NCBI GenBank assembly: GCA_015522145.1
Contig: WAMV01000006.1
Coordinates: forward strand, 1 to 19,755
Reading direction: 5' to 3'
DNA: 19,755 nucleotides
From: Candidatus Aenigmatarchaeota archaeon
GTDB lineage: Archaea > Aenigmatarchaeota > Aenigmatarchaeia > CG10238-14 > WAMV01
Part shown: positions 15,001-18,000 of the stretch, piece by piece
Numbering within the stretch: the first letter of the stretch is position 1
Layout: every line of letters starts with the position of its first letter
Position numbers: made by a program

Positions 15001-18000
15001 AACTGTAACATTTCTTATACCATGTTCTTTTATTTTCCTCTTTATTTCTTCTGGCAAATTCTTTGCAAAACCTCTTTGCAAATATTTTTCTGCATTAAAG
15101 CCTGGAAATGGACCCTTTTCTTTGGCAAGCTCTATGCTTGCCTCGTAAGCCCAGACTTTTATTTTATGCATTAAATAGTCAACAAATTCAATAGCTTCTT
15201 GGCTATCATACTTTATTCCTAACTTAATTAGCATATCTGCTAAGCCCATTATACCTAAACCTATTCTTCTGGAGTATAATGAGTGCTCGCTCTGTTCCTT
15301 TAATGGGTGCCTGTCTTTATTATAATCCAAAACATCGTCCAAAAATCTTACGCCAAGCTTAACCACTTTTTCCAATTTTTGATAATCAACTTTAGCATCC
15401 TGGGTAAATGCGTTTATAACAAACTTAGATAAATTTATAGAGCCTAGATTGCATACACCATAAGGTTCAAGAGGTACTTCTCCACAAGGATTTGTTCCTT
15501 GAATGACCATTTTTTCATCATAATCGCTGTTAGACATTTCTTTCATCCTAGTCCAGAAAATTACACCTGGTTCAGCCGAGCTCCATGCATGCTTAACAAG
15601 TTCATTCCAAATTTCTAAAACTTTAACTTTCTTCATAACTTTTATTCTAAGCAAATTGTACTTTTCGTCATATTCTTTTTCGTCAAGAAACTCAAACTCA
15701 TAACCATTCGACTTGAGTATTTCTTTAATTCTGTTTATTCTTTTTTCTTTTGTTTCTGAATCCTTAGGTATCTTTGTTTCAAATTCATGCCAAAGAGTAT
15801 ATTCTTTATTCTTGTTTCCTTTTAAAGCCTCATCAACAGCTTCCATAAAGTCATCAGTAACCTTTACTGAAATGTTCGCAAACCTTACATGAGTTCTGCT
15901 AGGGTCATCTTTAATTCTTATAAAATCTAAAACGTCTGGGTGTCTAACTTCTATGGTTATCATCAAAGCCCCTCTTCTCCCTGCTTGCCCAATAGTTCCT
16001 GTAACTTTAGAATAGAGATCCATAAAGGAAACAGCTCCTGTACTAGTTATTGCTGAATTGGAAACTGGCGTACCTTTAGGTCTTAATACGGTTATATCTA
16101 TACCAACTCCGCCACCATAAGAATAGGTTCTTGCCATTTCCCTAGCAGTTCTGAAAATGTCTTCTATAGAATCACCTTTTATAGGTAAGAAGTAGCAGTT
16201 CATTAAGGTAACTCTGTTGGGATTACCTGCCCCATACAATATTCTGCCTCCAGGAACAAATTTGAAATCAGATAATAGCCAATAAAATTCTTTAGCCCAC
16301 TTTTCCCTGTCCTTTTCAACTGAAGCTATGCTAGAAGCCACTCTTTGCCACATTTGCTCTGGTGTTTTCTCACCAAGCTCCTTTACAGCATACTTCTCAT
16401 AAAATACTCTAGCTCTTAATTCGTCTCCATCAAACCATCTTAGTGTTTCTTCTGGCAAGCCATTTTGATTTTCAAGCTTTGTTTTTACTGCCAACTTTAA
16501 CACCCCTTAGCTTTCTTATCTCTCTTTCAAAAGATCCAAGATCTTTGAACCTTCTATAAACGCTTGCAAATCTTATATAAGCAACATCATCTAATTTCCT
16601 TAACTCTTCCATAACGTACTCTCCAATCTTTTTGGAAGTTATTTCTCTTTTACCTGAAGATATGATTTTCATTATTATTCTGTCTACAATTTCGTCAATT
16701 TTATCTAAACTTATGGGCCTTTTTTCACAAGCTTTCATGATACCTATCTTTATTTTATCTCTACTGAATCTTTCCAACCTTCCATCTCTTTTCTTTACAT
16801 AAATAACTGGCAACTCCATTCTTTCATACGTGGTAAACCTTTTCCCACACTTTATACATTCTCTCCTCCTTCTTACAAAAACGTTAAAATCTCTACTATC
16901 CTTAACTTTAGTTTCTTGGTATCCACAGTAGGGACATTTCACTGTATCAGCCCAAAATACTATATATTGTGTTTTTTTGATACAACAAAATACAATATAT
17001 AGTGTGTTATTTAAATTATTTTATGTTCTCAAATCTATTTTTTACAAACTATTTAAAGAAGTCAACAGGAGTAAGCTTAAATTCTGAGGATTTTTTAATT
17101 TTTCCCTTCAACAACAAAATTTCCCTAGCTAGTAGCCAGTAAACAACTGCTAATGATTTTCTGGATCTGTTGTTGGCTGGAATTATCAAGTCAACATAAT
17201 CTGGATTCGTGTGGGTATCGCAAATGGCTATGATTGGTATGTTTGATTTTATGGCCTCTTCCATTGCCTGCTCATCTATAACTGGGTCAGTAATCAAAAC
17301 TATATCTGGCTCCATATATTTCTCGTACTTTGGATTGGTTAGAGTGCCTGGCATAAACCTTTCTATTATGTATTTAAAACCTACTGTCTCAGCAAATTTC
17401 TTTACGGCTTTTTTCGCTGCAGGCTTTCTTCCAACAACTAAAACATTATTCATTTTTGCCAATAATTGAGCTGCCAATCTAATTCTCTTATCTATTTTTT
17501 CTATGTCCATTATGGCTACTCCATCTGGTCTTATTCGATAGATAAATTTAGCCATTTTTTTGTTTTTTCTTTTGCTGCCTACATGTATTCCAGATTTTAT
17601 GTATAGTTCACGTGATATTAGTAAGTCTTCTTTTTTCTTCTTCGGCACTTTATCACCCTATGTAAGTCAATTTTTCCTTTTCTTCTTTAGGCATTTCCTG
17701 CCTTAATAAGCGCATGATGGCTTGCTTCTCCATATCTTTTACCCTCTTATAAAGTTCTTCAGCCTCCACCACTTGCTTATGTAAATCAGATGTATCAATT
17801 TCAAAATTTATAATTTTCGAAAATGTTTTAAGCACGGCTTCTGAAGCTTTTGGGTCAGGTAATATTGGCGAACCATGAGTTTCGCCCAGCAAGCAAATAC
17901 CATTCATTTTATAAAATTTAGCTAATCCTATTAATAGGCCTGCAGCGCCTATTATGCTACCTATTTTTTCACTGGCGTTAAAATCTATGCCCAGCTTTTC

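Follow-up and report, generated by a model that had tools for sequence, protein, structure and literature searches.

Predicted tandem NrdR boxes downstream of the putative TATA box of an archaeal nrdR-nrdJ operon in Aenigmatarchaeota

Introduction

The closest described counterpart of the locus analyzed here is the nrdRJ operon of S. coelicolor (7P37, 7P3F, 7P3Q; PMC9110341), in which nrdR is followed by the gene for a class II ribonucleotide reductase, autoregulation is likely, and two 16-bp NrdR boxes, separated by about three helix turns, lie across the start region. In E. coli, the repressor works in trans, at the operators of three sigma-70 operons, nrdAB, nrdHIEF and nrdDG (9FVR, 9FXK; PMC12176259, in excerpt; PMC13584703). 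Bacterial NrdR needs both boxes (PMC13584703), and linkers of 15-17 bp between them repress in vivo in E. coli (excerpt of PMC12051234).

In archaea, promoter occlusion by bacterial-type repressors is the norm according to the available part of PMC5569661, which describes Mdr1, LrpA, Phr, NrpR, TrmB and Lrs14 as bacterial-like regulators that block TBP/TFB binding or RNA polymerase recruitment. NrdR has been reported in 22% of archaeal genomes (PMC13584703), and haloarchaeal nrdR operons have been tabulated (PMC3019208, Table 3) and counted (PMC2795772, both in excerpt). In the tabulated operons nrdR lies directly upstream of a class I reductase, nrdAB, often on a plasmid, and their presence is attributed to bacterial transfer; the accessible text of PMC3019208 on these operons makes no mention of boxes. 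The box surveys of PMC13584703 and of the accessible part of PMC12051234 concern bacterial genomes, and a 2014 review, in the portion available, states that archaea lack the NrdR box (PMC4009431). The NrdR text of PMC7446807 was uninformative. Our search of openly available main texts for NrdR or its boxes in archaea, DPANN and haloarchaea returned among the matches listed no study of an archaeal NrdR and no paper mapping archaeal boxes. The archaeal NrdR operator thus appears to be unmapped in print.

Here we describe a predicted operator of this kind in a window of 19,755 nucleotides of a Candidatus Aenigmatarchaeota archaeon (GCA_015522145.1, contig WAMV01000006.1, positions 1-19,755), and its distribution among relatives.

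The nrdR-nrdJ locus

The nrdR, nrdJ and rps2 genes and the promoter elements described below lie on the minus strand. The nrdR gene (16472..16942) encodes a protein of 156 aa with a Zn ribbon and an ATP-cone (TIGR00244, 173.9 bits against a cut-off of 124.65; PF22811 over residues 1-40, PF03477 over residues 47-134). It overlaps by 32 nt the nrdJ gene (14074..16503), whose product of 809 aa is a class II (B12) ribonucleotide reductase (TIGR02504, 592 bits against a cut-off of 400), so that an earlier note on this DNA was right in placing nrdR before a class II reductase. The NPCGE finger loop and the C-terminal Cys motifs are both present in NrdJ, an ATP-cone was not found in it by Pfam, and it is the only reductase found in this genome (323 kb, 81% complete). 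Upstream of nrdR lies rps2 (17049..17648; TIGR01012), preceded by PAC2 and aIF-2 alpha genes (TIGR00162, NF003062). The archaeal-type uS2 and its two neighbors identify the contig as archaeal.

Two further gene groups were seen in the window. Genes for a thioredoxin reductase and a glutamate dehydrogenase lie near nrdJ (11538-13659), and the former could supply reductant to NrdJ. Despite the very small genome, a set of SUF-like Fe-S cluster genes is found at 286-5134, comprising two SufBD-like frames, an ABC ATPase, a cysteine desulfurase and a SufU-like scaffold, as named by eye from the translations.

The end of rps2 (17049) and the GTG start codon of nrdR (16942) are separated by 106 nt. 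Along the minus strand these contain, in order, an A-run, TTTAAATA, 2 nt, box 1, a 17-bp linker, box 2 and 14 nt before the GTG. Box 1 (ACACTATATATTGTAT; 16990..17005, read from 17005 to 16990) and box 2 (ACACAATATATAGTAT; 16957..16972, read from 16972 to 16957) flank the linker (16973..16989), and their start-to-start distance is 33, in agreement with the spacing that the note had given for two boxes between TATA box and nrdR.

Both boxes carry all six conserved positions (C4, A6, A8, T9, T11 and G13) of the 16-bp partial palindrome defined in PMC13584703, as do the three E. coli operators, and both are 100% AT between C4 and G13, where the second published criterion asks for at least 63%. 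The first 14 bases of box 2 equal those of a nearly identical synthetic box that two bacterial NrdRs bind at 41-45 nM (PMC13584703, Table 6). In the 323-kb genome there are 101 single occurrences of the six-position word, and this site is the sole place where two of them stand 30-33 apart. The looser published regular expression (excerpt of PMC12051234) gives 1374 single matches and 28 pairs, a chance-level number in this AT-rich genome which means that the expression is too loose to single out the site; since its single matches also occur in 91 of 144 shuffled regions, it was dropped as a criterion on its own, and pairs and the six-position form were used instead. With a matrix trained on relatives only, the window boxes rank first and second genome-wide with a joint score of 19.4 each (next match 16.1), and the claim that they are the best matches in the genome holds. 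The linker of 17 bp, compared with 15 in S. coelicolor, is at the upper edge of the accepted range of 14-17 bp (alternative range 24-27 bp).

The NrdR protein is intact and aligns with solved homologs over almost all of its length. It conforms to the NrdR pattern of an N-terminal Zn ribbon (two CxxC, RRRR) followed by an ATP-cone within 140-220 aa, the same architecture as in S. coelicolor, and the residues D15, R17, RRRR, R37, V48, K50, R51, E56, F58, K62 and Y128 of S. coelicolor NrdR (7P37), whose roles in DNA and nucleotide binding we take from PMC9110341, are identical; among them, D15 and R17 determine specificity, and V48, K50, R51, E56, F58, K62 and Y128 belong to the nucleotide site. 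R12 of the S. coelicolor protein is K in the window protein, as in E. coli, and the window protein differs by a two-residue deletion after R17 and an inter-domain linker that is three residues longer. Within the phylum, DKR is found in 98 of 130 stand-alone NrdRs, the S16K change being common, whereas DSR is found in the window NrdR and in 44 of 53 mostly bacterial rows.

Predicted promoter and mode of repression

Unlike that of S. coelicolor, the promoter of the window operon is predicted to be of the TATA/BRE type. The word TTTAAATA at 17008..17015, 2 nt upstream of box 1 and 33 nt beyond the end of rps2, is an exact match to TTTAWAWA, which we take to be the TATA consensus. An A-run at 17019..17022 would be BRE-like; it lies one base further out (-7..-4) than in relatives, where A is found at -5..-3 from the TATA word in 79-90% of 42 aligned sites. 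TATA-like words in this genome peak at -30 to -27 from ATG (78 candidate upstream regions), and a distance of about 28 nt from TATA to start is given in the accessible part of PMC8553660. These offsets put the predicted start near 16985, inside the linker, so that box 1 would span about -20 to -5 and box 2 about +13 to +28.

A weak word at 16946..16953, presumably Shine-Dalgarno-like, suggests a leadered nrdR mRNA.

The order of TATA box and operator recurs in relatives. Of 74 relatives with a box pair, 42 have an exact TTTAWAWA ahead of box 1 at a distance of 0-30 nt, compared with 1 further upstream, none downstream of box 2, and a mean of 2.8 (maximum 8) in shuffles. When one mismatch is tolerated and the word is accompanied by an A-run, the number is 57. 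The boxes sit 2-29 nt downstream of the TATA word, with gaps clustering near 10, 17 and 25 nt, and the window gap of 2 nt is the shortest (1 of 42).

From these features, we consider the two boxes a likely operator through which NrdR would repress its own nrdR-nrdJ operon, by blocking archaeal initiation downstream of the TATA box. Both the control of the operon by NrdR and the start site are inferred here. By analogy with bacteria (PMC9110341), a rise in dATP would load NrdR with dATP and ATP, and the resulting tetramer would bind both boxes through D15 and R17 and kink the DNA at either site by about 90 degrees; loaded with ATP alone, NrdR would form an oligomer that does not bind DNA. The complex on the boxes would leave the TATA box free, so TBP could still load, and recruitment of TFB and RNA polymerase, or promoter opening, would be blocked. 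Such an action resembles that of the archaeal repressors named above; NrdR differs from them in being a Zn-ribbon protein that senses ATP and dATP and, in its bacterial forms, imposes a DNA bend of about 180 degrees. In contrast to the trans action on three operons in E. coli, a single cis-linked operon is concerned here. As NrdJ lacks a detectable ATP-cone, NrdR may be all that restrains reductase output in response to dATP in this cell.

Alternatively, NrdR on the boxes might act mainly as a roadblock to read-through from aIF-2 alpha-PAC2-rps2, the TATA word of the window being incidental. The short gap between the rps2 stop and this word is compatible with such a role, as neither a T-run of at least 5 on the coding strand nor a hairpin terminator was found in it; a second copy of TTTAAATA overlaps the rps2 stop, and the gap between TATA word and box is the shortest in the survey. 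Nevertheless, the order of TATA word and box in 42-57 of 74 relatives speaks for a promoter at this position, and the proximal word has an upstream A-run which the rps2 word lacks. We regard a roadblock as the main function as unlikely, and return to the operator reading below.

Conservation of the predicted operator in the phylum

NrdR matches above the TIGR00244 cut-off were found in 151 of 371 genomes of the phylum (41%), that of the window included. The survey comprised 149 relatives among the matches listed, of which five with less than 250 nt upstream were dropped; the remaining 144 regions come from related organisms and are not independent. A single six-position box is present in 117 of the 144 nrdR upstream regions, against a mean of 10 (maximum 18) in 100 dinucleotide shuffles and 5 in a coding control. 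The earlier note had worried that its motif was tuned on these sequences; the published, untuned consensus is enriched all the same. Strict six-position pairs occur in 41 of 144 regions (shuffles 0.01, maximum 1), all 31 or 32 apart, and pairs by the published expression in 52 (shuffles 2.0, maximum 7; coding control 4). A lenient matrix gives pairs in 74, a circular count, the positive set itself having served for training. Boxes are found in 19 of 22 families and strict pairs in nine, with families taken from handle ranges.

The operator is therefore phylum-wide, and strict tandem pairs are confined to a minority of relatives (28-36%). Around 125 strong anchor boxes, a full partner is present in 27, the half that faces the linker in 48 and the outer half alone in 10, compared with 0-7 halves at control offsets; many relatives thus have one full box and the inner half of a second. 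The conservation that the note had claimed for the tandem arrangement stands for the single box and for a spacing peak at 31-32 (linkers of 15-16 bp). It does not stand for the pair, whose 41-52 of 144 falls below the claimed 22 of 29 (76%).

Several observations count against the operator reading, among them the unboxed reductase genes and the haloarchaeal spacing described below. The window geometry is at the edge of the phylum range, both in its 2-nt gap and in its spacing of 33, which is found in none of the 41 strict pairs and in four published-expression pairs of relatives. In addition, a strict pair is present in just 28-36% of relatives, though bacterial NrdR needs both boxes. Transcription that escapes control may also enter from rps2, since no clear terminator lies ahead of the promoter.

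Behind 129 stand-alone nrdR genes lies a class I/II-type reductase core in 64 cases and a class III enzyme in 49, and neither was found in 16 within the available DNA. Two families show variants. In f27 (L041, L048, L049, L061, L073, L083) the box center reads CC or CT rather than AT and NrdR has E15/T16, which may be protein-DNA covariation, although within a single clade. In f6 (L005, L006, L008, L010, L016, L018) one full box is followed directly by a second TATA-like word, about 30 nt before the ATG, and by a half box near the start as judged by eye; possibly, two promoters are placed under one operator.

Reductase genes with and without nrdR

As a negative control we used 37 genomes that are at least 85% complete and have no nrdR above the cut-off, with the reservation that such MAGs may merely miss the gene. 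They yielded 46 reductase loci (16 of 23 class III and 30 of 41 class I/II matches), or 45 in 34 genomes after removal of one that was open-ended. Strong boxes, defined by a matrix score of at least 12, precede none of these 45 reductases, compared with 125 of 144 nrdR regions (again a circular count), and no strong match was found in the 64,921 nt of upstream DNA; the six-position word and a loose pair each occur at two of the 45. In genomes with nrdR, we examined 12 reductase genes located elsewhere than behind nrdR. Seven have strong boxes, three of these seven being on another contig, and two of the genomes with such boxed reductases have no box at nrdR itself. The box is absent at four reductase genes of nrdR-bearing genomes (G140, G141, G067, G019) and weak in a fifth (G089).

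These counts also bear on whether the boxes are core-promoter words, with a TATATA center for TBP and flanks that hitch-hike or are vestigial. TATATA does occur in both boxes, and the AT core of box 2 begins about 26 nt ahead of the GTG, close to where leaderless genes of this genome have their TATA word. However, most relatives have a separate TATA word upstream, the C4/G13 flanks and the 31-32-bp spacing are conserved, many relatives have non-TATA centers such as CATG, and the nrdR-less reductases, which equally need a TATA box, have no strong box; we reject this reading as very improbable. Instead, the intact NrdR, the enrichment of an untuned motif, the separate TATA word, the lack of strong boxes in nrdR-less genomes and the tracking of reductase genes support what the note had proposed, a bacterial-type operator over an archaeal start, and the NrdR operator on this archaeal promoter is real and probably functional.

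A like arrangement exists in cultured haloarchaea, where two six-position boxes precede nrdR in all four plasmid nrdR-nrdAB operons (L349-L352) that we picked among the matches listed (40 of 54). These boxes are 29-30 apart, three of the four pairs at 29, and the two operons counted by eye have a TTTAT word 13-14 nt further upstream. Spacing at 29 leaves a linker of 13 bp, a length that was derepressed in an E. coli reporter (excerpt of PMC12051234), which makes it less likely that the bacterial geometry was simply carried over to haloarchaea.

Origin of the archaeal NrdR

In a quick tree of 225 rows and 150 columns, the window NrdR groups with those of Thermoplasmatota on a long branch (SH-aLRT 93), and the main bacterial clade of 40 rows is separate (SH-aLRT 97). 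Five bacterial rows, mostly of candidate phyla, and the haloarchaea fall among the archaeal NrdRs. The top named matches of NrdJ are archaeal, and some of its close relatives carry bacterial labels. This distribution suggests that nrdR has spread by exchange among archaea and is not a fresh bacterial import. Accordingly small is the chance we would give, before rejecting it, to a recent import of module and operator that is still read as a bacterial promoter or is not functional: the mirror image of S. coelicolor nrdRJ and the bacterial labels near NrdJ would fit it, whereas the tree, the archaeal top matches, the presence of NrdR in 41% of the phylum and a chance-level yield of bacterial promoters and terminators (sigma-70-like sites, 3 vs. 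1.8 +/- 1.3) do not.

Fusions of NrdR to reductases

In relatives of the window organism, NrdR, either whole or as its Zn ribbon alone, is fused to a reductase in 38 genomes, most of which keep boxes. Among the 149 NrdR matches, 20 lie in long frames, 19 of them joining a whole NrdR to a class III reductase (L077, L078, L086, L090, L097, L099, L106, L107, L113, L114, L119, L142, L152 and six partial loci) and one to a DHH domain. A strong box lies within 300 nt of 16 of these 19 whole-NrdR fusions and at 500-660 nt of two more, and their rows are scattered over several parts of the tree. The fused NrdD frames of L090, L097, L106 and L113 stop before any glycyl-radical motif, perhaps because the radical domain has been split off.

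Among 21 genomes whose TIGR00244 matches are weak, 19 (L250-L268, L353-L362) have the Zn ribbon alone placed on the reductase's own ATP-cone, 18 of the enzymes being class III and one class I/II-type. These 19 genomes have no TIGR00244 match above the cut-off, and a strong box is kept in 15. All 17 fusions that were aligned share an Asn ahead of the arginine run. Ten were available at full length, and class III finger-loop and glycyl-radical motifs are found in seven, NPCGE in one and neither in two. At L365:1348-3264 (G291), L363 and L364, the NrdR Zn ribbon is joined to an NrdD that is catalytically dead as judged by its motifs, and their own genes are without boxes. In G291 (85% complete) no NrdR-like protein besides the dead fusion was found, and a class II gene on another contig is preceded by a strong pair spaced at 31 (L370:1499-1545). 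Elsewhere, the search for a target in trans of dead fusions gave no strict box match in G302 (95% complete), nor one at its ATP-cone reductase, and a single weak match in G303 that is not before a reductase.

Other partners were also seen, at L130:606-2156 (G120) and in P0004, P0046 and others. The L130 fusion is the one to a DHH-family domain, and cytidylate kinase is the partner of NrdR in other database proteins. The fused forms also include proteins labeled Asgard, Bathyarchaeia and Micrarchaeia. In the literature searched we found no description of such fusions; PMC9669993 does not mention NrdR, and the available parts of PMC11226230 and PMC12176259 describe none.

We lean, by a narrow margin, toward an evolutionary series in small archaea, anchored by this operator, that would lead from the unfused form of the window, via whole NrdR on a class III reductase, to a Zn ribbon on the reductase's ATP-cone with the boxes kept, and on to a dead Zn-ribbon reductase that maybe represses another reductase gene in trans, as in G291. 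If this is true, a ribonucleotide reductase acts as a DNA-binding repressor of its own gene, with one nucleotide sensor serving both enzyme activity and transcription.

Implications

The archaeal boxes described here correct a printed statement of absence (PMC4009431, in the part available). The arrangement is widespread, yet largely expected given that both NrdR in archaea and repressors acting by occlusion are in print; to a specialist, the operator will be welcome and not very surprising. The fusions of repressor and enzyme are more surprising, and the window operator provides the baseline for those found in relatives.

For the phylum, which is uncultured, our data provide a concrete predicted regulon, in which the operator appears to have been re-fitted behind the TATA word, with a preference for offsets of about 10, 17 and 25 nt. 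As a like layout is present in cultured haloarchaea, the action of a DNA-bending bacterial repressor on TBP, TFB and RNA polymerase is directly testable.
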